This document shows positions 53,111 to 64,000 of a stretch of DNA of 64,000 nt, in pieces (the stretch's first letter is position 1; each line of letters begins with the position of its first letter). Origin of the DNA: an uncultured Alphaproteobacteria bacterium (GTDB lineage Bacteria > Pseudomonadota > Alphaproteobacteria > Bin95); assembly GCA_963807085.1 (NCBI GenBank), contig CAWEBB010000032.1, forward strand, positions 38,146-102,145. The letters run 5' to 3'. Below the pieces are notes generated by a model that was not told where the DNA came from, ran no database searches, and saw nothing but the letters and a program-made list of their open reading frames with translations. The position numbers and the translations under genes were made by a program.

Positions 53111-53740
53111 TCACTGGCTCGCCCATAAAATCCGGGCGATCCATTCCACCTCGGCGGTCGGCAGGACCGGGTTGTCGTATTCGGGATTGAGGCTGCGCAG
53201 TTCGATTCGCTGCGCCGTTCGCCGTACCAGTTCCTTGGCCATTACCTCGCCTTCGCTGGTTTTCACCACGACCCGATCTCCGACGCGGATATTGGCGACG
53301 GGTGAAACGATGATGCGGTCGCCGCCCCGATAGAGGGGTTCCATCGAGTCGCCGCTGACCATCAGGGCATAGGCATTGGGGTCGCCGATATCCGGAAAAA
53401 CAATCTCGTCCCAGCCCGATCCGGTCGGATAGCCGGCATCGTCGAAATAGCCGCTGTCGCCAGCCTGCGCGAAGCCGATCACGGGAATCCGCTGGGTAGC
53501 CGTGGCTGTCGAGTTTGGAAGTTCGTTCAGCAGGTCCGACAGGCTGGCGCCTGTAGCCGTCAGAATTTTCGCGATGCTCTCAGTGCTTGGCCATCGCAGC
53601 TTGCCGTCACGGGTTGCCCGCTTGCTTTTGTTGAAGGTCGTCGCATCCAGGCCGGCGCGCTTCGCCAGTCCGGAGGGAGAAAGATCGTGCTTTGCCGCCA
53701 GGCGGTCGATCGCTTCCCAGATGTCAGCGTGCTTTAACAT
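53111..53740 (-). CDS. XRE-family HTH + peptidase S24 (CI/LexA-fold) repressor, prophage-repressor type
   Basis: N-terminal HTH (LSPSGLAKRAGLDATTFNKSKR), C-terminal S24 (ALMVSGDSMEP...K). It is not the alphaproteobacterial LexA architecture. Confidence 0.8.
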   Translation of the reverse strand: MLKHADIWEAIDRLAAKHDLSPSGLAKRAGLDATTFNKSKRATRDGKLRWPSTESIAKILTATGASLSDLLNELPNSTATATQRIPVIGFAQAGDSGYFDDAGYPTGSGWDEIVFPDIGDPNAYALMVSGDSMEPLYRGGDRIIVSPVANIRVGDRVVVKTSEGEVMAKELVRRTAQRIELRSLNPEYDNPVLPTAEVEWIARILWASQ

Positions 53741-53749
53741 GATGCCTCG

Positions 53750-53774
53750 CCCTGTTGTTGGGCCTGTTGTTGGG
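53750..53774. repeat. Tandem 12/13-mer direct repeat (cctgttgttggg ×2) in the repressor's upstream region; candidate operator
   Basis: cctgttgttgggcctgttgttggg, 10-35 bp upstream of the repressor start codon. Confidence 0.5.
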
Positions 53775-53795
53775 AACACAGTCTCATACTATCGC

Positions 53796-53824
53796 TTGAC
53801 ATTCACTAGGAAAAAGTTCATATA
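53796..53824 (+). promoter_or_regulatory. Near-consensus sigma70 promoter (TTGACA-17-CATATA) facing the + strand small genes; contains two TAGGAA hexamers
   Basis: cgcTTGACAttcacTAGGAAaaagttCATATAGGAAtc. AT-rich island in a 65% GC background. Confidence 0.55.
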
Positions 53825-53858
53825 GGAATCAAAGCCGATAAATTGTTTGGAGAGAGCG

Positions 53859-54251
53859 ATGTACGATGATCCGATTGCGGGGTCGGAATCCGATGAAGGA
53901 GAGAGCCCGTTCTCCAGCGCCGACGAAGCATGGATCTGGGCCGTGCAGGGGATGCAAAGCCGCCTGTCCGGGGCAAACATCAAGGCCGGCATGGGCAAAT
54001 TTACAAGGCCTTGCGAGGCATCCGATGTTTTAGGCTGCGCCGACGCGCTGCATCGGCAGGGGGCGCTAAGCAACGTGGAGTTGCGGGTGCTGTTGCTCTA
54101 CGGCGGCTACGCGGCGGCCCCGATGATGCTGGGCTGTTCCCATGCCCCGGCGGTGCCTTTTTGGCAGCGCGGCATGGATGCGCTGACGCCATTAATGGAA
54201 CAAAAAGGGATCATTCTTCCGCGCGCAAGGGCGCGTTTCCGTGCGGACTAA
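53859..54251 (+). CDS. Hypothetical protein (130 aa)
   Basis: GGAGAG RBS and good GC3 bias; no recognisable family. Confidence 0.45.
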   Translation: MYDDPIAGSESDEGESPFSSADEAWIWAVQGMQSRLSGANIKAGMGKFTRPCEASDVLGCADALHRQGALSNVELRVLLLYGGYAAAPMMLGCSHAPAVPFWQRGMDALTPLMEQKGIILPRARARFRAD

Positions 54252-54618
54252 CGCGATCGTCGTCTTCAGCGGCCAGACCGATTTCTGGTGGCAGCGCCTG
54301 CTAAGGCCCGGCTACCGCCATTGCGGCGTCATGATCGAGTGTGGCGACCACTGGGTGGTTCTGGAGCCGCTTGCGGCGCGTTTGGAGGTGCGGATTTTCA
54401 CCGTATCCAGCCCCGACGCCCTCAAGCGGGCCCTGCGCCGCCGGCAGTTGCTGGCGGTCGAGACCGAGGTGCAAGTCGATGCGGCCCCCGCATTGTTTCC
54501 GGGCCTGTTCACCTGTGTGGAGGCCGTGAAGCGCGCCCTCGGCATTCGCGCCGTCTGGGTGCAGACCCCGTGGCAGCTCCATAAAAATCTCAAATTAGGA
54601 AAAAAAACCTTGACATGA
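54241..54618 (+). CDS. Hypothetical protein (125 aa)
   Basis: GTG start overlapping the previous stop. Its stop codon lies inside the -35 of the downstream promoter. Confidence 0.4.
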   Translation: MRTNAIVVFSGQTDFWWQRLLRPGYRHCGVMIECGDHWVVLEPLAARLEVRIFTVSSPDALKRALRRRQLLAVETEVQVDAAPALFPGLFTCVEAVKRALGIRAVWVQTPWQLHKNLKLGKKTLT

Positions 54619-54638
54619 ACACGTAATAGGAATATATA
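54610..54638 (+). promoter_or_regulatory. Near-consensus sigma70 promoter (TTGACA-17-TATATA) with an upstream A-tract, preceding the virion gene block
   Basis: attAGGAAaaaaaaccTTGACAtgaacacgtaaTAGGAAtaTATATAc. Confidence 0.55.
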
Positions 54639-54743
54639 CATCCTCAAGACGGCCCCACTGCGCCCAGCGCCCGGGGCCGTTCCTGTTTCCGACAACCGCA
54701 TGGAACGGCGCCAGACGCATGGCCGGTTCCAAAAGGAGGATGG

Positions 54744-54980
54744 ATGGGCGCCATTATCAGTCCACTGACGCGGGAGGCTCCGGCTCCCAAGCCGACGCCG
54801 ACCGTCGTCGAACCCGCGGTCGATCCGGCCGTGGCGGAGCGCGAAGCCGCATCGGCGGCCCGGCGCGCGTTCCTGGCCCGCCAACAGAAAGGGCGGCTCG
54901 GAACGATCGCCACCACCGCCCGGGGTGTTTTGAGCCCTGGCCAGTTGTCGGTCGTCCGCCGCTCATTGCTCGGAGAATAA
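54744..54980 (+). CDS. Small Pro/Ala-rich hypothetical protein (78 aa) immediately upstream of the portal gene
   Basis: AAGGAGG RBS. The stop is 1 nt before the portal ATG. Confidence 0.5.
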   Translation: MGAIISPLTREAPAPKPTPTVVEPAVDPAVAEREAASAARRAFLARQQKGRLGTIATTARGVLSPGQLSVVRRSLLGE

Positions 54981-54981
54981 G

Positions 54982-56523
54982 ATGAAGGCAGCCGAAATCC
55001 TCCGGCAGGAGTTCACGCAGGCGTTCCGTGGTCGCATGGCCTGGGAAGAGCATTGGCGCGATTGCTATGCCTACGCCATGCCGCAGCGCGAGGCCGGTGC
55101 TCCGGCGGGCGCCCGCCGCTCCGACCGTCTGTTCGACGGAACCGCGGCCGACGCGGTCGAGCAACTGGCGGCCAGCCTGCTCTCCGAACTGACGCCGCCC
55201 TGGGTGCGTTGGGTGGAACTGAAGCCGGGGCCCGAAGCCACGGTTGACGAAGCGGCGGCGATATCGCCGGCGCTCGACCGGGTGAGCGCCACGTTGCAGT
55301 CTCATTTCGACCGCTCCAACTTCGCGGTCGAAATCCACCAATGCTATCTGGACCTGGTGACGGCCGGTACCGCCTGTCTGCTGTTCGAAGAGGCGCCGGT
55401 CGGCGAGGCCAGCGCCTTTCGCTTTACCGCGGTGCCGATCCACGACGTCCTCATGCAGGAGGGCGCAACCGGCCGGTTGGACCGTGTGTGGCGCCGCGTG
55501 CAGCTGACCCCAGAGCAGTTCGTGGAACGCTACGGGCACCCGCCCACGGCCGAGCCCGGTGCGGAGGCGCCGAAAAAGATCGGCGTGCTGGAAGCCGTGC
55601 GCCCGACACCGAATGGTCACAAATACGTGGCAGTGCGCGAACAGGGGGAAGGCGACGACGGAACCCTGGCGGAAGGCGAGTTCGCCTCCAACCCCTTTAT
55701 CGGCTTCCGCTGGCTGAAAGCGCCGGGCGAGTCCTATGGACGTTCGCCGGTGATGACCGCCTTGCCGGATATCAAGACCGCTAACAAGGTCGTGGAGCTG
55801 ATTCTTAAGAACGCCTCCATCGCCGTCACCGGCATCTGGCAAGCGGACGACGACGGCGTCCTGAACCCCGGCACGGTCAAGCTGGTACCCGGCACCATCA
55901 TTCCGAAGGCCGTCGGCTCGGCGGGCCTGGCGCCGCTGCAGGCGCCCGGCCGGTTCGATGTTTCCGAATTGGTCCTCAGCGATCTGCGCGCCCGCATTCG
56001 TCACGCCCTGCTGGTGGACCGGTTGGGTACGGTGCAAAGTCCGCGCATGACCGCGACCGAGGTGTTGGAGCGCTCGGCGGAGATGGCCCGCATCCTGGGG
56101 GCGACCTATGGCCGGCTTCAGGCGGAGCTGTTGTCGCCCTTGCTTTCGCGGGGGCTCAGCATTCTGCGTCGGCGCGGCGAGGTTCCGGATGTTCAGGTCG
56201 ATGGGCGCACGGTTGACCTGCACTACCGCTCGCCGCTGGCGGAAGCGCAGAACCGGGCGGAGGCGCAATCGGCGCTGGGCTGGGTCAAGACCGTCGCCGA
56301 GATGGGGCCGGAGGGTCTCTCGGTCGTCGATCTGCCCGCCTTCGCGCGCTGGCTGGCGGGCAAGATGTCGGTGCCGGGAGAACTGCTGCGCCCGCCGCCC
56401 TTGGCGCCGATCACCGACGTTTCCGGCGATGACGCGCTCGCCCAGTTGTCGGACGCGCTGCTGCCCGCTCTTGGAGAAGGCGCCGGAGTGAATACCGGGG
56501 AGGGCGACGGCGATGCTGAATGA
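54982..56523 (+). CDS. T7-type portal (head-to-tail connector) protein
   Basis: Collinear with T7 gp8, including LKAPGESYGRSPV versus T7 RLDGESYGRSYIE, plus SNFAVEIHQCYLDLVTAGTACLLFEE. Confidence 0.8.
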   Translation: MKAAEILRQEFTQAFRGRMAWEEHWRDCYAYAMPQREAGAPAGARRSDRLFDGTAADAVEQLAASLLSELTPPWVRWVELKPGPEATVDEAAAISPALDRVSATLQSHFDRSNFAVEIHQCYLDLVTAGTACLLFEEAPVGEASAFRFTAVPIHDVLMQEGATGRLDRVWRRVQLTPEQFVERYGHPPTAEPGAEAPKKIGVLEAVRPTPNGHKYVAVREQGEGDDGTLAEGEFASNPFIGFRWLKAPGESYGRSPVMTALPDIKTANKVVELILKNASIAVTGIWQADDDGVLNPGTVKLVPGTIIPKAVGSAGLAPLQAPGRFDVSELVLSDLRARIRHALLVDRLGTVQSPRMTATEVLERSAEMARILGATYGRLQAELLSPLLSRGLSILRRRGEVPDVQVDGRTVDLHYRSPLAEAQNRAEAQSALGWVKTVAEMGPEGLSVVDLPAFARWLAGKMSVPGELLRPPPLAPITDVSGDDALAQLSDALLPALGEGAGVNTGEGDGDAE

Positions 56524-56776
56524 TCTTCAGGACGGATGGGCGTGGTTTGACGACCCGTCGGAACGGCAGGCGGACAGTGAGCTGCGGCAGTATTTCGTCC
56601 GCGCCTTTCATTCGGACGCGGGGCGGCAGGTGTTGGCGCATTTGCGCGCCGCAACGGTGGAACGGCGCACGCCGCCCGACGCGCCGGACAGCGTCCTCCG
56701 CCATCTGGAGGGCCAACGCTACCTGTTTCAACTGATCGAACGGCTGGCGAATGCCGAGCTGCAGGAGTCTGCGTAG
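56513..56776 (+). CDS. Hypothetical protein (87 aa), overlapping the portal 3' end
   Basis: Coding-like GC3; unknown function. Confidence 0.35.
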   Translation: MLNDLQDGWAWFDDPSERQADSELRQYFVRAFHSDAGRQVLAHLRAATVERRTPPDAPDSVLRHLEGQRYLFQLIERLANAELQESA

Positions 56777-56777
56777 A

Positions 56778-57578
56778 ATGAACGAACCTCTCAACACACC
56801 CACCGAGAGCGGCGATAGCGCGATTTCGGCCGGCACCGCGCAGGGCCTGCCGGAGCGGTCAATGGAGCGGCCCGGCGAGGGAGCCGTTACGCGGCCCGCA
56901 TCGGTTCCGGACAAATTCTGGGACACGGCGACGAACTCCGTCCGTGTGGACGACCTCGCCAAATCCTATTGCGAGCTGGAGCGCCATTTGGGCGGCTCCG
57001 TAAAGATTCCGGACGAAAGCGCGGACGATGCGGAGATCGCCCGTTTCCGCCAGGCCCTGGGCGTGCCGGAAAACCCCGATGGCTATGAACTTCAACTGGA
57101 CGAAGAAAGCCTGGAAGCCGACCCGGAGGTCAACCGCCGGCTGCACGAAGCGGGCTTCAGCCAAAGCCAGGCCCAGCTCGTCTATGACTTGGCCAGGGAA
57201 TATATCGGCCCCATGGTTCAGCAGACCGCCGCCGATTTCGAGGCAGAGCGCCAGACCGAGCGCCTGCAACAGCATTTCGGCGGTGCGGAGGCCTGGACGG
57301 GCATCTCGCGCCAGCTTCAGGAATGGGGCAAGGCCAACATGGCGCCGGAGGCTCTTAGCGCACTGTCGACTACCTATGAGGGATGTTTGGCGCTGCACAA
57401 AATGATGCAAAGCCAGGAGCCCGGCCTCGTCCGCAGCAACGGCCCCGCCGAGCGGGATGGCACCGACGAGTTGAAGGCGATGATGCGCGACCCGCGTTAT
57501 TGGCGCGACCGCGACCCTGCCTTCATCCGACAAGTCACCGATGGTTTCAGCCGCCTGTACGCCGACGGCGACGGCTAG
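56778..57578 (+). CDS. Putative scaffolding protein (acidic; 266 aa)
   Basis: Position between portal and capsid; acidic, coiled-coil-like composition. Confidence 0.45.
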   Translation: MNEPLNTPTESGDSAISAGTAQGLPERSMERPGEGAVTRPASVPDKFWDTATNSVRVDDLAKSYCELERHLGGSVKIPDESADDAEIARFRQALGVPENPDGYELQLDEESLEADPEVNRRLHEAGFSQSQAQLVYDLAREYIGPMVQQTAADFEAERQTERLQQHFGGAEAWTGISRQLQEWGKANMAPEALSALSTTYEGCLALHKMMQSQEPGLVRSNGPAERDGTDELKAMMRDPRYWRDRDPAFIRQVTDGFSRLYADGDG

Positions 57579-57843: not shown

Positions 57844-58662
57844 ATGTCGACCACCATCGACCAATCGTTCATCCGCCAGTTCGAGGCCGAAGTTCACGAG
57901 GCCTATCAGCGGATGGGATCCAAGCTCCGTCAGACTGTCCGCTCCAAGGGCAATGTACAAGGTTCCTCGACCACCTTCCAAAGGGTCGGCCAGGGCGCGG
58001 CTTCCACCAAGTCGCGGCATGGCCTGGTCCCCGTCATGACTATCGATCACAGCGCCATCGAGTGCGTGCTGACCGACTATTATGCCGGTGACTGGGTCGA
58101 CAAGCTCGACGAGATGAAAATCAACATCGACGAGCGGCACGTGATCGCCAACGCCGGCGCCTATGCGCTGGGCCGCAAGACGGACGAGTTGATCATCGCC
58201 GGCCTGAACACGTCCACTAACTACGCCGGTCTCGCGACCGACGGCCTGACGAAGGCCAAGGTTCTGACCGCCTTTGAGAAGATGGGGGCGGCGGATATTC
58301 CCGACGATGGCCAGCGCTTCGCGGTCATCGGCTGGAAACAGTGGGCGGAGTTGCTTAGCATTCCGGAGTTCGCCAACGCGGAATATGTCGGGGCGGACGC
58401 GCTGCCCTGGCGCGACACACAGGCGAAGCGCTGGCTCGGAACCACCTGGATCCCGCATTCCGGCCTGTCTCTTTCCGGCTCGGCGCGCCTGTGTCACTGG
58501 TACCATCGGACGGCGATCGGTCATGCGGCCGCCGCAGAGGTCCAGACCGACATCACCTGGCACGGCGACCGGGCGGCCTACTTTGTCGCCAACATGATGA
58601 GCCAGGGTGCGGTGAGGATCGACGGCGCCGGTGTCGTGACCATGCGTTGCTTCGAGAGCTAA
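57844..58662 (+). CDS. T7-type major capsid protein
   Basis: FIRQFEAEVHEAYQRMGSKLRQTVRSKGNVQGSSTTFQRVGQ parallels T7 gp10 LFLKVFGGEVLTAFARTSVTTSRHMVRSISSGKSAQFPVLGR. Confidence 0.7.
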   Translation: MSTTIDQSFIRQFEAEVHEAYQRMGSKLRQTVRSKGNVQGSSTTFQRVGQGAASTKSRHGLVPVMTIDHSAIECVLTDYYAGDWVDKLDEMKINIDERHVIANAGAYALGRKTDELIIAGLNTSTNYAGLATDGLTKAKVLTAFEKMGAADIPDDGQRFAVIGWKQWAELLSIPEFANAEYVGADALPWRDTQAKRWLGTTWIPHSGLSLSGSARLCHWYHRTAIGHAAAAEVQTDITWHGDRAAYFVANMMSQGAVRIDGAGVVTMRCFES

Positions 58663-58689: not shown

Positions 58690-58929
58690 ATGGCATTCGA
58701 CCCCCAAAACATGGGCGTGCTGGGCTACTGCAATGGCTTTACTCTCTGGTATTATCGGTCGGCGACGGACAATTACCCGACCGTTACCGCAGACGGCTAT
58801 TTCACCCCGTTCTATGAGTCTCTCAGTCTGGAAGATGTCATCTTCTTTACCGAGTCGAATGGACGGACCGGCCGGCGGCGTATCAACCAACTGTCCAAGT
58901 CGTTGGTGACGATAACGCACCTGCTTTAG
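58690..58929 (+). CDS. Hypothetical protein (79 aa)
   Basis: ORF with an ATG start between the capsid and tubular A genes. Confidence 0.3.
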   Translation: MAFDPQNMGVLGYCNGFTLWYYRSATDNYPTVTADGYFTPFYESLSLEDVIFFTESNGRTGRRRINQLSKSLVTITHLL

Positions 58930-59019
58930 CTCCCTAGCAACTCAGCAACCACTCATATCAGCCGCGGCCTCGCTCTCGATCGGGAGCGGGGCCGTTTCCT
59001 TATCAAGGGAGTTTTCTCG

Positions 59020-59592
59020 ATGGCTCTTAGCGCTATCGCGCTCTGCTCGCGCGCGCTGTTGAAGCTCGGCGCCCGGCCGATCGCCGGGTTCGACGAAGGC
59101 ACTGCCGAAGCGGAGGTCGCGGTCAATCTGTTTCCCTCCATCCGCGATGCGTTGCTTTCGGCGCATGGCTGGTCGTTCGCCACGGCCCAGAGCCGGCTGC
59201 CCCAGCTGGAAGAAGCGCCGGTGGCGGATTTCGACCGGGCTTTTCAACTGCCCGTGGATTTCCTGCGGGCCTTGTCGGCCGGTGCGGGTGCGCGCGGCCG
59301 CGGCCTGGTCTACCGGATTGTGGATGATCGGCTGCATACCTCCTCAAGCGAAGTTTATCTGACCTACATTTTCCGGCCAGCCGAGGTCGATTTCCCGCCA
59401 TTTTTCGACCAGCTTCTGATCGCCCGGCTTGCCGCGGAGTTTTGCATTCCGGTCACGGAAAGCACCAGCCGCGCCGAGATGCTGTACCGGATCGCCGAAA
59501 CCGAGTTCCGCCGCGCGCGCCTGGTCGATGCACAGCAGGACACGCCGCTCGCGATCGAAGACTTCCCGCTGGTTGCGGTGCGCGGCCGATGA
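59020..59592 (+). CDS. T7-type tail tubular protein A (gp11-like)
   Basis: Size and position match; ALLKLGARPIAGFDEG...LLSAHGWSFA parallels T7 gp11 ILASIGEPPVSTLEGD...IQSRGWTFN. GGGAG RBS. Confidence 0.6.
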   Translation: MALSAIALCSRALLKLGARPIAGFDEGTAEAEVAVNLFPSIRDALLSAHGWSFATAQSRLPQLEEAPVADFDRAFQLPVDFLRALSAGAGARGRGLVYRIVDDRLHTSSSEVYLTYIFRPAEVDFPPFFDQLLIARLAAEFCIPVTESTSRAEMLYRIAETEFRRARLVDAQQDTPLAIEDFPLVAVRGR

Positions 59593-61493
59593 CGGTCGTC
59601 AACCTGTTGAAGACCAACTTCACGGCGGGCGAGATCTCGCCGCTGCTGTATGGCCGCGGGGATTTGCGCGCGTACGACAACGGCGCGGCAAAGCTTCAAA
59701 ACGTCTTCATTCACCCGACCGGCGGCGTCTATCGCCGGCCTGGCCTCCGCTATATCGGGCCTGCGCGCGGGCGCGGGCGCCTTATGACGTTCGAGTTCAA
59801 TACCGAACAGGTGTACCTGCTCGCCTTCAGCGACCGGATGCTGGACATCTATGAAGGGGACAACCTGGTCGTCTCGGTCGCGACGCCCTGGACCGAAGCG
59901 CAACTGGCGCAGATCGCCTGGACCCAAAGCGCCGACACATTGCTCGTGACCCATCCGGACGTGCCGCCCCGGCGGATCACCCGGACGGGCCCCGCCACCT
60001 GGACCGTCAGCGAGTGGGTTTTCGCCGAAAAGGACGGCGTGTGGTACGCGCCATTTTTCCGGTTCGGCCACACGGGCGTGACGCTGACGCCGAGCGCCGT
60101 GACCGGCGCCATCACCATCACCGCGTCTGCGGCGGTGTTCGATGCAAACCATGTCGGCACCCGCCTGCGGTTGGCGACCAAGCAGGTGGCGATCACCGGC
60201 TTCACCTCGCCGACGCAAGTGAGCGCCGACGTTCTGCAAGACCTGGCTGGCCTGGAGCCGACCGAAGATTGGGACGAACCGGCCTTTTCCCCGCGGCGCG
60301 GCTGGCCGGTCACGGTGGCCTTTCATCAGGATCGGCTGGTCATTGGCGGCTCCCGCGATCTGCCGAACCGGCTTTGGTTCTCCAAGTCGGGCGACCTGTT
60401 CAACTTCGATCAGGGCGAGGGCCTGGACGACGAAGCGATCGAGTTTCCGATCCTCTCCGATCAGGTCAACGCCATCCGTGCCCTGTTCTCAGGCCGGCAC
60501 CTGCAGGTCTTTACCTCGGGCGCCGAATGGATGGTGACGGGCGACCCGTTGGCGCCGACCACCGTGCAGCTGCGCCGGCAGACCCGCATCGGCTCGCTGA
60601 TCAGCCGAACAATTCCCCCGAAAGACGTGGATGGCGCGACCATGTTCGTCGGGCGCACCGGTCACGAGCTGCGGGAGTTCCTGTTCTCGGATATCGAGCA
60701 GGCCTATCAGGCGGGCGACCTGGCGCTGCTGGTCGCGCACTTCTTCCGTGATCCGCTCATGCAGGATTTCGACCCGGCCCACCGGCTGCTGCATCTGGTG
60801 CTGGCGGATGGGACGCTGGCGACGCTGACAATCTACCGCAACGAGCAGGTTACCGCCTGGACGCGGCAGATCACGGAAGGTTCCTTCCGCGACTTGGCGG
60901 TCGTCGGCGATACCACGTACGTGCTGGTGCAGCGTGCGCACGGCCTGTTCGTCGAAGTCTTCGACGAAACATTTGGCGTCGATAGCGGCGTCCATACCCA
61001 GGTGTTTACCCTGGAGGACTCCGCGACCGGTCTGGACCACCTGGAAGGGCAGACCGTTGCCATTGTCGCCGATGGCACCCTGCGCCAGTCCCAGACGGTA
61101 CAGGGTGGGCGAGTTGCGGTCGGTGCTGCCGCCTACCAGGCAGCGATCGGGCTGCCCTTTCAGCACATTATCGAGGCGCTGCCGGTCGCCGGATCGATGC
61201 CGGGCGGCTCGGCCCAGGGCCGTTCTTACCGGGTGGTCGAGGCAACCTTCCGCCTGCACGAGACGGGGGCGCTCGTCTGCGACCTGGGTTCCGGCCTGAC
61301 GCCGGTGCCGTTTCGGCAGGTGGGCGGGACCACCAGCTTCGGCAGTCCCGCCCCGAACTTTTCCGGGGACAAGCATATCCGCGCGCTCGGCTGGCGGCGC
61401 TCCGGCATCGATGCGCCATGGCGCATCGATCAGGACGCGCCGCTGCCGTGCACCGTTCTTTCCGTAACAACTGAAATCAAGGTGACCAACTGA
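59589..61493 (+). CDS. T7-type tail tubular protein B (gp12-like)
   Basis: N-terminal NFTAGEISPLLYGRGDLRAY...VYRRPGLRYI parallels T7 gp12 NLKGGISQQPDILRYPDQ...KRPPLVFL. ATGA overlap with the gp11-like gene. Confidence 0.65.
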   Translation: MTVVNLLKTNFTAGEISPLLYGRGDLRAYDNGAAKLQNVFIHPTGGVYRRPGLRYIGPARGRGRLMTFEFNTEQVYLLAFSDRMLDIYEGDNLVVSVATPWTEAQLAQIAWTQSADTLLVTHPDVPPRRITRTGPATWTVSEWVFAEKDGVWYAPFFRFGHTGVTLTPSAVTGAITITASAAVFDANHVGTRLRLATKQVAITGFTSPTQVSADVLQDLAGLEPTEDWDEPAFSPRRGWPVTVAFHQDRLVIGGSRDLPNRLWFSKSGDLFNFDQGEGLDDEAIEFPILSDQVNAIRALFSGRHLQVFTSGAEWMVTGDPLAPTTVQLRRQTRIGSLISRTIPPKDVDGATMFVGRTGHELREFLFSDIEQAYQAGDLALLVAHFFRDPLMQDFDPAHRLLHLVLADGTLATLTIYRNEQVTAWTRQITEGSFRDLAVVGDTTYVLVQRAHGLFVEVFDETFGVDSGVHTQVFTLEDSATGLDHLEGQTVAIVADGTLRQSQTVQGGRVAVGAAAYQAAIGLPFQHIIEALPVAGSMPGGSAQGRSYRVVEATFRLHETGALVCDLGSGLTPVPFRQVGGTTSFGSPAPNFSGDKHIRALGWRRSGIDAPWRIDQDAPLPCTVLSVTTEIKVTN

Positions 61494-61948
61494 TGGGCGC
61501 AGTAGCTCCTGTAATCGCGGCAGGCTCGCTGATGGGATTGAGCCTGCTCGACAACGCCAACTCCGCGCGCACGGCCCAGCAACGGGCGGCGCAATCCTCC
61601 GAGGCGGCCCGGGCCAATGCCGACCTGCAACTGGCGAAGCTCCAGTCCGACCAGGAAGAGAGCCAGGCCAAGCGGCAGTCGGCGTTGCGGCGCGCGCAGG
61701 CACGCACGCGGGCCCTGCTGGCCAGCCGCGGCGTCGGCGGCTCCGGCCGTGCCGTGCTGCAGGGCCTGGCGGTCGAAGCCGCCCGGGACCAAGCGTTTGC
61801 GGACAGCGATGCCGACTTGCAGCGCCAGAGTATCGAGCTGGGCGTGGACACCACGCGCCGGCGCAACCTGCTGGCCGCCGACGATGCGCGACGCCGCGCC
61901 CAGTTGGACCTGCTGCGCACCGGCACCCGCACGATCAACAGCCTATAG
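61493..61948 (+). CDS. Hypothetical coiled-coil virion protein (151 aa; possibly gp13/gp14-like)
   Basis: ATG overlaps the gp12-like stop (cTGATGg). Gln/Arg/Ala-rich. Confidence 0.4.
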   Translation: MGAVAPVIAAGSLMGLSLLDNANSARTAQQRAAQSSEAARANADLQLAKLQSDQEESQAKRQSALRRAQARTRALLASRGVGGSGRAVLQGLAVEAARDQAFADSDADLQRQSIELGVDTTRRRNLLAADDARRRAQLDLLRTGTRTINSL

Positions 61949-61967
61949 CGCCGACGGAGAACGACCG

Positions 61968-64000
61968 ATGGTTCAGTCCAAACATATAAGAATACAAGCA
62001 AAAAGCCCGCGCGTGCAGTACATTGCCGACGGCACGCAAACCTTCTTCACGTTCACTTTTCCCGTCTTTCATGCCGGCAATCTGCACGTCTATGTCGATG
62101 AGGTTCTGCAGGTCGGCACCTATACGGCGAACGGTGTCGGCGCGAGCCATGGCGGCGCGATCGTATTCGAGAACCCGCCGCCCGCGGGCGCCCGCATCAC
62201 GCTGCGGCGGCTGCTGCCGGTCGAGCGGGTCACTGACTTTCAGGAAGGGGGCGATTTTCGCGCCGCGACCCTGAATGACGAACTCGACTACCAGACCGCG
62301 GCCATGCAGCAGATCCAGTCGGACATGGAGCGGGGCCTTCGCCTGGCGCCGACCGATACGGAAGCGACGACCACCCTGCCGGGCAAGGGGGACCGCGCCG
62401 GCAAGTTCCTGGCGTTCGACACCGCTGGGCAGCCGGTGGCGCTGCCGCCGACCACGGATATGCCCGGCGACGCCAGTACCGCCTATGTGATCGGCTCCGG
62501 CCAGGTGACACCGCGCACGCTCGCAGACCGCTTTTCGGCGATCCCGACCGTGCTGGACCAGGGAGCGAAGGGCGATGGCGGCACCGACGATGGCCCGGTC
62601 CTTGCAACGCTTGCTTCGCCTCACTTGCTGCCGGCCGGCAGTTATGCGGTCAGTGCCGACGATCTGCCGGCGGTCCGCCCCTATAACGTTTACGGTGGCG
62701 GCGAACTGGTGGACCCGAACGCGACCGAAACCTCGCTCCGTGCCCGTCAGCGCCTGCTGAACGATCGCGGCATGGGGTATTCGCTGGGCATGATGGCCAG
62801 CCTGTTGCCGGATCTCTCCGGGCCGCGGATGGATATGGCGGCGCTTGCCGATGCGATTGCAATGGGGGCCGCCAAAGTGGTCCTGGTCGGCGACAGCATT
62901 ACCGAAGGGGCGGACGTCGAGGAGGAAAACAGTTGGGGCGCGCTGCTCCAGCAGAGCCTCGAGCGCACCTTTCCGGAGGTCACCTGGACCTTCGCCAACC
63001 TATCGCTCGCCTCGCGCCATGCCGAGCATCTGGCGGACCCGGCCTATTTGGGCTTGCCCAGCGAGCCGGCGGACAAGGAGCAGGGCTTCTTTCGCCCACC
63101 CGCCACCGCCTTTCCCCGTGAGAACTGGCAGGCCGGCTCCGTCACCGGCAAGTCCTGGCGCAACCATGTGCGGGACGAGGCGCCGGATCTGATCGTCTGG
63201 GCGCACGGGATGAACAATTTTCACCTCTCCGGCCAGCAATATTTCGCCGCGCTGATCAGCTTTCTGGACTATGCGAAGACCTGGGCAAAGGTGCCGGCGA
63301 TCGCGCTGGCCACGACATTTCTGCCGACACGCCTGAACCCGATCTATCGGGCGCGTCAGGGGGCGCATGACGGGCACTACCGCATCCTGCGGGAGATTGC
63401 CGTGATCCGCCGCACGGGTCTGATCGATGCGAACCGGGTCTATCACTTCCTGCGCGATGGTGTGGACGAAGGGCGCCGCCACTGGTTCCGCGAAGACAAT
63501 TTCCGCGGGTGGAACACAGCCTGGTGGGATTTCCTCGAAGGCGGCACCGGTCAGGTGGCCACCGCCTCCGGCCGGCTGCGCTTTTCCGGCATCGCCCGGC
63601 CCCGGCGCAAGCTGATGGCCGCCGACTTCCAGGCGGACATTACCTGGAAGCCGGCGAATGCTGCAGATGTGCTGGGGTTCAATTACCGTGTCGACCCGGA
63701 CAATGGCGCCGATCGGTACGAGTTCCAGTGGTCCGGCCCGAACCTGAAGATCTACTGGAAGAACACGGTCAAGCTTGCCGCTATTGATGCGGCGGCGGCG
63801 GCCGGCACCGACAATTTCGTGCGCATCCGCTGCGACGGCGCCCGGCATCGCGTCTGGATCAATGGCGTCCTGAAGCTGGATGGCAATGACTTTGCCAACC
63901 TGGCCGAAGGTTCGTGCGCATATCGCGCCTATCTGGGCAGTGCGGCCGCCGCGGAAATCGGCTGCCGGCTGAAGATCGGTTACCCGGCCCGGCATGCCCG
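61968..64000 (+). CDS. Tail fibre protein: T7 gp17-type N-terminal domain fused to an SGNH/GDSL hydrolase-like domain; 3' end lies beyond the window
   Basis: GGAG RBS and ATG 61968. Frame 0 stays open to nt 64000 by manual translation. QYIADGTQTFFTFTFPVF..NLHVYVDEV....ARITLRRLLPVERVTDFQEGGDFRAATLNDELDYQTAAMQQIQ matches the T7 fibre N-domain pattern. Later VVLVGDSITEG and WAHGMNNF resemble SGNH blocks I and III. Confidence 0.75.
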   Translation, partial: MVQSKHIRIQAKSPRVQYIADGTQTFFTFTFPVFHAGNLHVYVDEVLQVGTYTANGVGASHGGAIVFENPPPAGARITLRRLLPVERVTDFQEGGDFRAATLNDELDYQTAAMQQIQSDMERGLRLAPTDTEATTTLPGKGDRAGKFLAFDTAGQPVALPPTTDMPGDASTAYVIGSGQVTPRTLADRFSAIPTVLDQGAKGDGGTDDGPVLATLASPHLLPAGSYAVSADDLPAVRPYNVYGGGELVDPNATETSLRARQRLLNDRGMGYSLGMMASLLPDLSGPRMDMAALADAIAMGAAKVVLVGDSITEGADVEEENSWGALLQQSLERTFPEVTWTFANLSLASRHAEHLADPAYLGLPSEPADKEQGFFRPPATAFPRENWQAGSVTGKSWRNHVRDEAPDLIVWAHGMNNFHLSGQQYFAALISFLDYAKTWAKVPAIALATTFLPTRLNPIYRARQGAHDGHYRILREIAVIRRTGLIDANRVYHFLRDGVDEGRRHWFREDNFRGWNTAWWDFLEGGTGQVATASGRLRFSGIARPRRKLMAADFQADITWKPANAADVLGFNYRVDPDNGADRYEFQWSGPNLKIYWKNTVKLAAIDAAAAAGTDNFVRIRCDGARHRVWINGVLKLDGNDFANLAEGSCAYRAYLGSAAAAEIGCRLKIGYPARHA

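Follow-up and report, generated by a model that had tools for sequence, protein, structure and literature searches.

The question raised by this locus is whether a run of T7-type virion genes that lacks the large internal core proteins belongs to a T7-like phage or to something else. The genes lie at the end of the window, by which we mean the whole stretch of 64,000 nucleotides analysed here (contig CAWEBB010000032.1 of assembly GCA_963807085.1, from an uncultured alphaproteobacterium), a piece of bacterial chromosome with a GC content of 61-69%. They are part of a 15.1-kb cluster extending from 53111 to about 68194, the final 4.2 kb of which were taken from a second contig, L001. Here, we show that the locus is a compact, chromosomally fixed and vertically inherited element, and not a T7-like phage genome or a prophage. 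With moderate confidence, and judging from its predicted genes, we interpret it as a domesticated, SOS-inducible, particle-forming element of the gene transfer agent (GTA) or viriform kind, one that descends from a podovirus and has no relationship to RcGTA or BaGTA.

The large internal core proteins are absent from the cluster

The first-pass annotation had described a gp12-like gene, a 151-aa open reading frame (ORF) and a fibre gene in this order, with a 19-nt gap and a ribosome-binding site (RBS) before the last of them. Inspection of the sequence confirmed these coordinates.

59020-59592, forward strand: gp11-like adaptor (tail tubular protein A), 190 aa; phrog_394 (E 5e-42), weak match to Pfam Tube; 84-91% identical in relatives.
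59589-61493, forward strand: gp12-like nozzle (tail tubular protein B), 634 aa; phrog_376 (E 2.5e-147), matches to the solved nozzles 8CK1 and 9EFK.
61493-61948, forward strand: 151-aa helical-hairpin protein with a hydrophobic N-terminus, probable gp14 counterpart; Pfam T7_gp14, hhalign, AlphaFold2 (AF2) model and position.
61968-64000, forward strand, running off the window to about 64547 (L001 1589-4168): tail fibre or spike, 859 aa at full length; Pfam and PHROG matches, length from L001.

The four genes are tightly packed. The gp11-like ORF overlaps the gp12-like ORF through ATGA, the stop codon of the latter shares TGATG with the ATG of the 151-aa ORF, and this ORF ends with TAG, followed by the 19-nt gap with a GGAG and by the fibre ATG at 61968. 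When the sequence between the gp12-like gene and the fibre was read directly, no ORF of gp15 or gp16 size was found. The annotation had further stated that the T7 genes gp14 to gp16 are missing here. As to gp15 and gp16 this is correct, and it extends to the whole cluster: no counterpart of gp13, gp15 or gp16 was found between 53111 and about 68194, including the part read from L001. As to gp14 the statement probably does not stand, the 151-aa protein being its probable counterpart (discussed below).

It had also been proposed that the core genes might sit downstream of the fibre, beyond the end of the window. We therefore looked for large ORFs past 64 kb in the Logan contig L001, in which the same 151-aa protein is encoded and which agrees with the window at 99.89% of the 3,621 shared bases (window 60380-64000). 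The ORFs that follow the fibre are 92, 219, 101, 119, 500 and 162 aa long, and host genes come next.

L001, first after the fibre: holin-like ORF, 92 aa; phrog_1193.
L001 4443-5102 (window-equivalent 64822-65481): membrane protein, 219 aa.
L001, after the 219-aa ORF: secreted (periplasmic) protein, 101 aa.
L001, overlapping the start of the large terminase gene: putative small terminase, 119-aa ORF.
L001: large terminase (TerL), 500 aa; phrog_38 (E 1.4e-74).
L001, after TerL: putative cell-wall hydrolase, 162 aa; weak match, Azospirillum and Varunaivibrio homologues recorded with PF07486.

The host pyrD and HAD hydrolase genes stand immediately after the 162-aa ORF, and the order of the genes after the fibre is the same in three diverged relatives (L005, L006 and L007). 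A downstream location of the core genes is thus refuted. For the same reason, the probability that the locus is a complete T7-like prophage with gp15 and gp16 beyond the fibre is negligible, since in L001 and the three relatives the fibre is followed by five small ORFs with TerL and the hydrolase, and then by pyrD.

To see how general this gene content is, we assembled related loci (80 metagenomic and 80 from IMG/VR, with flanks of up to 10 kb) and searched them with the reference proteins. For the 23 examined loci that have TerL downstream of gp12, the two are 0.4-4.6 kb apart, and core proteins of about 2,000 aa would not fit into this space. One sublineage has large ORFs after gp12, and these are fibre- or spike-like (T7-fibre N-terminus, LamG, SPRY, DUF7483). 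In this sublineage (L024, 11909-20811; L096, L107, L114, L117, L120, L122 and L163) the 151-aa gene is missing and three or four fibre/spike genes stand in a row.

The core genes could, in principle, lie at a distance: the element would then be a multi-locus one with a full ejectosome, gp15/gp16-type genes elsewhere on the chromosome and only the canonical position empty. Both RcGTA and BaGTA require genes outside their main clusters (Tables S1-S5, PMC9662315), and our reading covers 64 kb plus 6 kb of the genome and flanks of 10 kb at the related loci. We nevertheless consider such an arrangement unlikely. The other large ORFs of the window encode housekeeping proteins (SecA, PrpF, glycogen enzymes, an IOR oxidoreductase), gp15/gp16-type genes were found within 10 kb of none of the related loci, and the true phage relatives all keep these genes tightly linked between nozzle and fibre. 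The suggestion of a different or absent DNA-ejection apparatus is thereby supported as far as gene content goes, gp15/gp16-type proteins being absent both from the cluster and from the related clusters examined.

The 151-aa protein is a probable gp14 counterpart

The sequence of the 151-aa protein consists of a hydrophobic N-terminus, a helix rich in Q, A and R, the motif R-A-R-F-G-A-x-G-...-G-S-x-x-A-V-L-x-G-L and a second helix. The AF2 model is a two-helix hairpin (residues 8-78 and 85-150) of modest confidence, with a mean pLDDT of 63.6. A comparison with gp14 profiles, one of the checks proposed in the annotation, gave a partial answer. The protein matches Pfam T7_gp14 (PF24072) with an E-value of 2.5e-5 and 24.7 bits, just below the gathering cut-off of 27 bits. 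Among 35 diverse members of its family, nine match PF24072 at E<0.01 (the best at 6.3e-7), and for P0013 a precomputed PF24072 match is on record. In hhalign comparisons the same motif of the family was aligned, weakly in both cases, with the YeP5 'internal virion protein' of phrog_418 (E 0.0048) and with ALK43934 of Legionella phage LME-1 (E 0.03), while the comparison with T7 gp14 itself was not significant (E 0.38).

Searching the PDB sequences with the family profile returned chance matches only and no gp14 chain, and Foldseek of the AF2 model against the PDB, with 0 matches, was uninformative. The family is of low complexity, and a further search for homologues enlarged it little. A 148-aa ORF that follows the nozzle gene in YeP5 was considered as a counterpart and rejected, as it encodes a GNAT acetyltransferase.

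An ORF of the 151-aa family stands immediately after gp12 in 123 of 144 related loci, mostly with a length of about 135-190 aa, and of 220-300 aa in one subclade; the gene is wholly absent from approximately 10% of the loci. Since a family member follows gp12 so regularly, the 151-aa ORF is a real gene, and the idea that it is a piece of a larger, frameshifted core gene can be dismissed. Position, size, hydrophobic N-terminus and helical hairpin all fit a gp14 counterpart. We regard the 151-aa protein as a probable counterpart of gp14, and its gene as the sole internal-virion-type one remaining in the cluster.

The cluster is vertically inherited with its host

The relatives L005, L006 and L007 carry the same genes, of the same lengths, at the same site: luciferase-like, DUF4170 and oxygenase genes on one side of the element, and pyrD, HAD, helix-turn-helix (HTH) and metK genes on the other. 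The element is separated from its host neighbours by only 11 and 41 bp, and its GC content at third codon positions is like that of the host. Among genus-level relatives synonymous sites are saturated (dS > 1), and the ratio of nonsynonymous to synonymous substitutions (dN/dS) is 0.03-0.2 for most genes, reaching about 0.4 for orf219 and orf101; in other clades it is 0.04-0.3. Most proteins of the element are 70-94% identical between these relatives, in comparison to 60-79% for the flanking pyrD, HAD and oxygenase. The capsid protein is 90-94% identical (dN/dS 0.03-0.06), whereas pyrD is 64-76% identical. The fibre, with 70-80% identity and a dN/dS of 0.06-0.16, is as conserved as pyrD, which is unusual, as phage receptor-binding proteins normally evolve fast.

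The pattern of pairwise distances is alike for element and host genes. Moreover, in the 11 loci in which pyrD is the neighbour of the cluster, its identity is correlated with that of gp12 (r = 0.92) and that of TerL (r = 0.81), down to a pyrD identity of about 50%. The linkage is also present in Azospirillum sp. TSO22-1 (L171), where pyrD is found some 1 kb past the end of the cluster. From the shared site, the dN/dS values and the identity correlation, rather than from a formal tree reconciliation, we conclude that the cluster is vertically inherited with its host under purifying selection.

Genes for mobility are lacking. Among all ORFs from the repressor (53111) to pyrD, searched against Pfam and PHROGs, there is no integrase, no replication gene and no single-subunit RNA polymerase. 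No direct repeats of at least 10 bp, as expected of attachment (att) sites, were found at the borders, no tRNA gene was found in the window, and no Rfam family was matched. Since a plasmid collection holds no close copy of the element, we regard it as chromosomal. What remains is a phage-like cluster of head, tail and packaging genes without genes for replication, integration or excision, and this is a general mark of a GTA or viriform.

These results bear on two other explanations. A helper-dependent satellite, of the phage-inducible chromosomal island (PICI) or capsid-forming PICI type, would borrow replication and the large ejection proteins from a co-resident phage of the LME-1 or HTVC010P type. 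The functions that are missing are exactly those that a helper could supply, the element has a repressor of its own, and there are related phages whose portal and nozzle are compatible. Mobility and an integrase mark the known satellites, whereas here we found no integrase, no primase, replicase or other replication module, and no att site or repeats; the site is fixed, the element has co-diverged with pyrD down to about 50% identity, and host genes are inserted within the cluster in one case. A satellite is thus improbable. Less probable still is an ordinary decaying prophage remnant that has had its core, replication and integration genes deleted. Individual copies are indeed degraded (L004, L111 and L167), but all of the about 20 genes are intact, with constant lengths, in lineages that have saturated synonymous sites and a dN/dS of 0.03-0.3, and the same deletion state recurs in more than 100 loci with GC contents of 34-74%.

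The upstream genes encode a repressor and a T7-type head

Upstream of the adaptor gene the cluster contains a divergent repressor gene, two early ORFs and the head genes.

53111-53779, reverse strand: CI-type repressor with Cro/C1 HTH and S24 autopeptidase; Pfam Peptidase_S24 (E 4.6e-22) and HTH_26.
53847-54251, forward strand: orf134, early ORF, candidate regulator; same position in most related loci.
54241-54618, forward strand: orf125, early ORF, candidate regulator or antiterminator; position kept across the family.
54744-54980, forward strand: 78-aa ORF at the T7 gp6.7/7.3 position; RBS upstream, weak match to phrog_831 (E 2.4e-4).
54982-56523, forward strand: portal of T7 gp8 type; Pfam Head-tail_con (E 4.7e-134), dN/dS 0.05-0.09.
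56513-56776, forward strand: Bbp19-like small protein; Pfam PF25181 (E 2.3e-13).
56751-57578, forward strand: scaffolding protein of T7 gp9 type; Pfam Phage_T7_Capsid (E 2.1e-18); start codon uncertain, relatives about 250 aa.
57844-58662, forward strand: major capsid protein, 272 aa; Pfam Phage_capsid_2 (E 1.5e-77).
58690-58929, forward strand: 79-aa ORF at the position of the LME-1 head-decoration gene; conserved, 79-89 aa in relatives.

The repressor contains GDSMEP and VVVK motifs and an AQ-AG cleavage-type site, and its gene is divergent from the rest of the cluster. It is 83-90% identical in relatives (dN/dS 0.05), and adjoins the cluster in 34 loci that also have portal and TerL. For orf134 and orf125 no family was matched in Pfam, PHROG or NCBIfam. 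The counterparts of the 78-aa ORF in L005-L007 are 78-85 aa long; hhalign gave no alignment of it with T7 gp7.3 or with the 76-aa ORF of LME-1. The longest ORF before the portal, of 88 aa (54719-54985), is in the wrong frame and was rejected in favour of the 78-aa ORF, which is the conserved gene. The nearest solved structure to the capsid protein is 9EG4 (E 1.6e-21), the T=7 capsid of LME-1. Annotated tail tubular B proteins from pelagiphages and from Methylophilales phage MEP301 share 30-34% identity with the gp12-like protein.

At the other end of the cluster, the fibre combines a T7 tail-fibre N-terminal adaptor with an SGNH/GDSL esterase-like domain and a lectin-like one (3-keto-disaccharide hydrolase/LamG), as matched in Pfam and PHROG. 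The latter two suggest that the fibre may deacetylate a polysaccharide receptor at the cell surface. The 219-aa membrane protein starts with two hydrophobic helices at its N-terminus, and a Met within it precedes a lipobox-like LFLAGC; a holin is one possibility, a spanin-like pair read as one ORF another. With 44-61% identity in relatives, it is the least conserved gene of the cluster. As judged from these predictions, the cluster has all the genes required to build a short-tailed particle filled with DNA and to lyse the cell.

Conserved promoter- and terminator-like sites in the cluster

Four candidate regulatory sites were noted in the cluster.

53796-53824, forward strand: P1, promoter-like site TTGACA-N17-CATATA; read by eye, with conservation.
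54610-54638, forward strand: P2, promoter-like site TTGACA-N17-TATATA ahead of the late operon; read by eye, conserved in four loci.
54648-54690, forward strand: GC-rich hairpin and T-rich run, terminator- or attenuator-like, directly after P2.
58964-58995, forward strand: 13-14-bp hairpin with T-rich tail, after the capsid block and before the tail genes; terminator scan, T7 Tphi position.

The intergenic DNA between the repressor gene and orf134 (53780-53846, TCTCATAYTWTCKCTTGAYATTCACTAGGAAAAAGTTCATAT) is nearly invariant between the window, L005 and L007, despite saturated synonymous sites in the coding regions, and it probably contains an operator and a promoter. A related motif, CTTGACA...TAGGAA, recurs at P2. 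A consensus promoter scan found nothing, and what supports P1 and P2 is their conservation alone. The hairpin after P2 is predicted by RNAalifold in four loci with 12 pairs and -22.9 kcal/mol (single sequence -24.1 kcal/mol, z = -3.2). This arrangement is like a lambdoid late promoter followed by a terminator, which suggests that antitermination would be needed, perhaps by orf134 or orf125. The second hairpin (-31.4 kcal/mol, z = -4.3) is also present in four loci, and two of its pairs are maintained despite changes on both sides.

The nearest relatives are podophages, not known gene transfer agents

The structural module (gp8-9-10-11-12-17-18-19) is collinear with T7 and with LME-1. The T7 late (class III) region shows the same succession of an ORF at the gp6.7/7.3 position, gp8, gp9, gp10, a terminator, gp11, gp12, gp14, gp17, holin, small terminase and TerL. 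In contrast to T7, the element lacks gp13, gp15, gp16, the RNA polymerase and every gene of the early and middle classes, and its gp14-like and 78-aa proteins have no significant pairwise similarity to T7 gp14 and gp7.3. LME-1 is the closer match. Its order is a 76-aa protein, portal, a 91-aa protein, scaffold, major capsid protein, decoration protein, adaptor, nozzle, proteins of 167, 826 and 1316 aa, fibre, five small ORFs and TerL, and the element corresponds to this arrangement minus the 826-aa and 1316-aa proteins.

More generally, LME-1, Cobetia phage Carin-1, HTVC010P-type pelagiphages, MEP301 and Yersinia phages YeP4-6, podophages of T7-like morphology, have homologous portal, Bbp19-like protein, scaffold, capsid, adaptor, nozzle, fibre N-terminus and TerL in the same order as the element. 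In these phages, too, a protein of about 160 aa directly follows the nozzle. However, these phages are 30-35 kb in size and have integrase or replication genes, whereas the element is 15 kb, chromosomally fixed and devoid of them. Another difference is that, after their gp14-like gene and before the fibre, two or three large internal virion proteins are encoded, together about 1,600-2,100 aa long; the element has none of them. The proteins between nozzle and fibre are of 708, 430 and 841 aa in YeP5, 567, 464 and 586 aa in MEP301, and 826 and 1316 aa in LME-1.

The formally classified GTA lineages are RcGTA, BaGTA and BhGTA, each confined to its own host group. To our knowledge, none of them is a T7-type podovirus. 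The element resembles RcGTA (Rhodogtaviriformidae) in that both comprise head, tail and packaging genes in some 15 kb, pass vertically through Alphaproteobacteria under purifying selection and have no integrase or replication genes. Delivery by RcGTA relies on DNA-uptake genes of the recipient. The two differ in kind: RcGTA is under host regulators, while the element is podovirus-like, with T7-type portal and scaffold and a CI-like repressor of its own. RcGTA is siphovirus-like: its HK97 capsid comes with a prohead protease, and its tail has a tube and a tape measure (Tables S1-S4, PMC9662315). None of these RcGTA families (HK97-type capsid and prohead protease, TP901-1-type tail tube, tape measure) was matched in the cluster by Pfam or PHROG.

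A relationship with BaGTA (Bartogtaviriformidae) was also considered. Its core cluster is about 14 kb long and its particles are reported as tail-less or short-tailed (PMC9662315), in which it resembles the element as predicted from its genes. BaGTA has a TerL of about 403 aa, a major capsid protein of about 373 aa and a TerL-first order, and the TerL of Sulfitobacter phage pCB2047-C nests in the BaGTA TerL clade (PMC9662315). Taking this phage as a proxy for BaGTA sequences, we found no similarity of its TerL, portal and major capsid protein to the element. On gene sizes and order and on this proxy, the relationship was rejected.

A further comparison is with PBSX, an established particle that packages host DNA without injecting it. 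The element would be PBSX-like in function, with an SOS-linked chromosomal repressor, packaging of host DNA, lysis and particles without productive delivery. In contrast, PBSX is myovirus-like, belongs to Bacillus and has no homology to the cluster.

In Azospirillum lipoferum 4B and Azospirillum sp. B510, mitomycin C induces particles with random host DNA of about 10 kb, which are suspected to be GTAs and whose encoding genes were never located (PMC3899980, PMC2818188). The host group is the same, given the cluster in Azospirillum sp. TSO22-1, and induction by DNA damage fits an S24 repressor. We found no description of an element such as this one in the searchable full-text literature.

A proposed mode of action and its alternatives

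If the element is a domesticated GTA-like one, it might work as follows. DNA damage would lead to self-cleavage of the S24 repressor, and the early ORFs would then allow read-through of the leader terminator. Capsids would assemble, and, as the element has no way to excise or replicate, the DNA packaged by the terminase would be chromosomal. A short tail and esterase-bearing fibres would be added, and the lysis cassette would free the particles, which would bind to cells of the same lineage. There, the gp14-like protein would at most open the outer membrane. T7 mutants that lack gp15 or gp16 give non-infectious particles. Without the gp15/gp16 tunnel, the particle would be unable on its own to take DNA through the periplasm and the inner membrane, so any delivery would need the uptake machinery of the recipient. 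It seems that DNA would either enter in this way, as with RcGTA, or would not be delivered at all, as with PBSX.

The second outcome is a reading in its own right, in which the particle would be a PBSX-like killer or an agent of altruistic lysis, and selection would act on adsorption, on the esterase fibres or on lysis (release of DNA and nutrients, interference with phages). SOS-type repressor control and a full lysis cassette are in agreement with it, as are the lack of a way across the inner membrane and the precedent of PBSX. On the other hand, portal, terminase and nozzle are selected no less strongly than the capsid, an argument for the importance of DNA packaging and of the exit channel, and podovirus tails have no known killing mechanism that is independent of ejection proteins. 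We judge a non-delivering particle to be rather improbable, slightly more so than the multi-locus arrangement.

Several observations weigh against the reading of the locus as a domesticated, particle-forming GTA-like element. First, pyrD is adjacent in only 9 of the 46 loci with enough flanking sequence, and the copy in Varunaivibrio is at another chromosomal site; the site is thus not universal. Second, the element can be lost: in one locus, found by a scan of genome contigs (L004 1-21582, metagenome-assembled genome (MAG) contig CBDBCB010000019.1), the copy has decayed, with gp12 split and devoid of its first ~100 codons, the 151-aa gene split and about 50 codons of the fibre left. Third, in L111 (11987-13537, 516 aa) and L167 (10998-12230, 410 aa) the ORFs right after gp12 have N-termini that look integrase-like by eye, and gp12 is truncated in L167; other mobile elements may have inserted into the cluster here. 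Moreover, the gp14 assignment depends on sub-threshold scores, and gp15/gp16 analogues could lie elsewhere in a genome of which 64 kb plus 6 kb were covered. The nearest solved capsid relative is a T=7 head for a 30-kb genome, and a head of this size could hold the whole 15-kb cluster, unlike that of the classical RcGTA. Control by a CI-like repressor of its own is phage-like rather than host-integrated. Finally, the functional steps (particles, their DNA content and transfer) are all ones that we infer from sequence.

More tentatively, we propose that the element represents a third independently domesticated alphaproteobacterial GTA lineage, one that arose from an LME-1/HTVC010P-type podovirus. 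Such a lineage would be of ancient date, would occur widely (in Rhodospirillales and beyond, GC 34-74%), would have shed the ejectosome since recipient uptake takes the DNA, and could underlie the 10-kb particles of Azospirillum. If this is true, a podovirus-derived, SOS-controlled cluster across many Alphaproteobacteria widens the known routes of phage domestication, and provides a natural experiment on a podovirus without gp15 and gp16 in which the reliance of GTAs on recipient uptake becomes testable. The cluster is also a concrete candidate for the unexplained host-DNA particles of Azospirillum. Since prophage finders and IMG/VR list such loci as proviruses, prophage counts may be inflated in these taxa.

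Breadth and variants of the cluster

At E<1e-30, relatives of the gp12-like protein number more than 3,859, of which the best 120, those listed, are 627-640 aa long. We assessed the taxonomic spread from the names of these listed relatives together with the loci of Azospirillum sp. TSO22-1 and Varunaivibrio sulfuroxidans. The named hosts are Rhodospirillales, Azospirillum, Varunaivibrio, Defluviicoccus and unclassified alphaproteobacterial MAGs, and some of the contigs are 0.1-3.3 Mb long. In the 160 related loci the gene order is near-universal: S24 repressor on the opposite strand, orf134, orf125, portal, Bbp19-like gene, scaffold, capsid, orf79, gp11, gp12, the 151-aa gene where present, fibre, TerL and hydrolase. 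These loci have a median span of 15.4 kb and a GC content of 0.34-0.74.

A few clusters are rearranged yet compact. In L152 and L153 TerL lies upstream of the portal, in L153 together with the hydrolase, and in L048 and L064 the portal-scaffold block is downstream of gp12. In the otherwise intact cluster of Azospirillum sp. TSO22-1 (L171 3756-7733), genes for a PAS-GGDEF-EAL protein and a hybrid histidine kinase, host signalling genes, stand between scaffold and capsid. Just upstream of the remnant in L004 there are two 441-aa ORFs that are insertion sequence (IS) transposase-like. Many of the IMG/VR loci (L088-L167) are catalogued as proviruses of ~17-18 kb from isolate genomes. GTA_holin_3TM is a holin family named after RcGTA. 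In Varunaivibrio sulfuroxidans the Hydrolase_2 endolysin at the cluster's end is succeeded by a gene of this family (PF11351; L172 18769-19152), a likeness of this copy to RcGTA.

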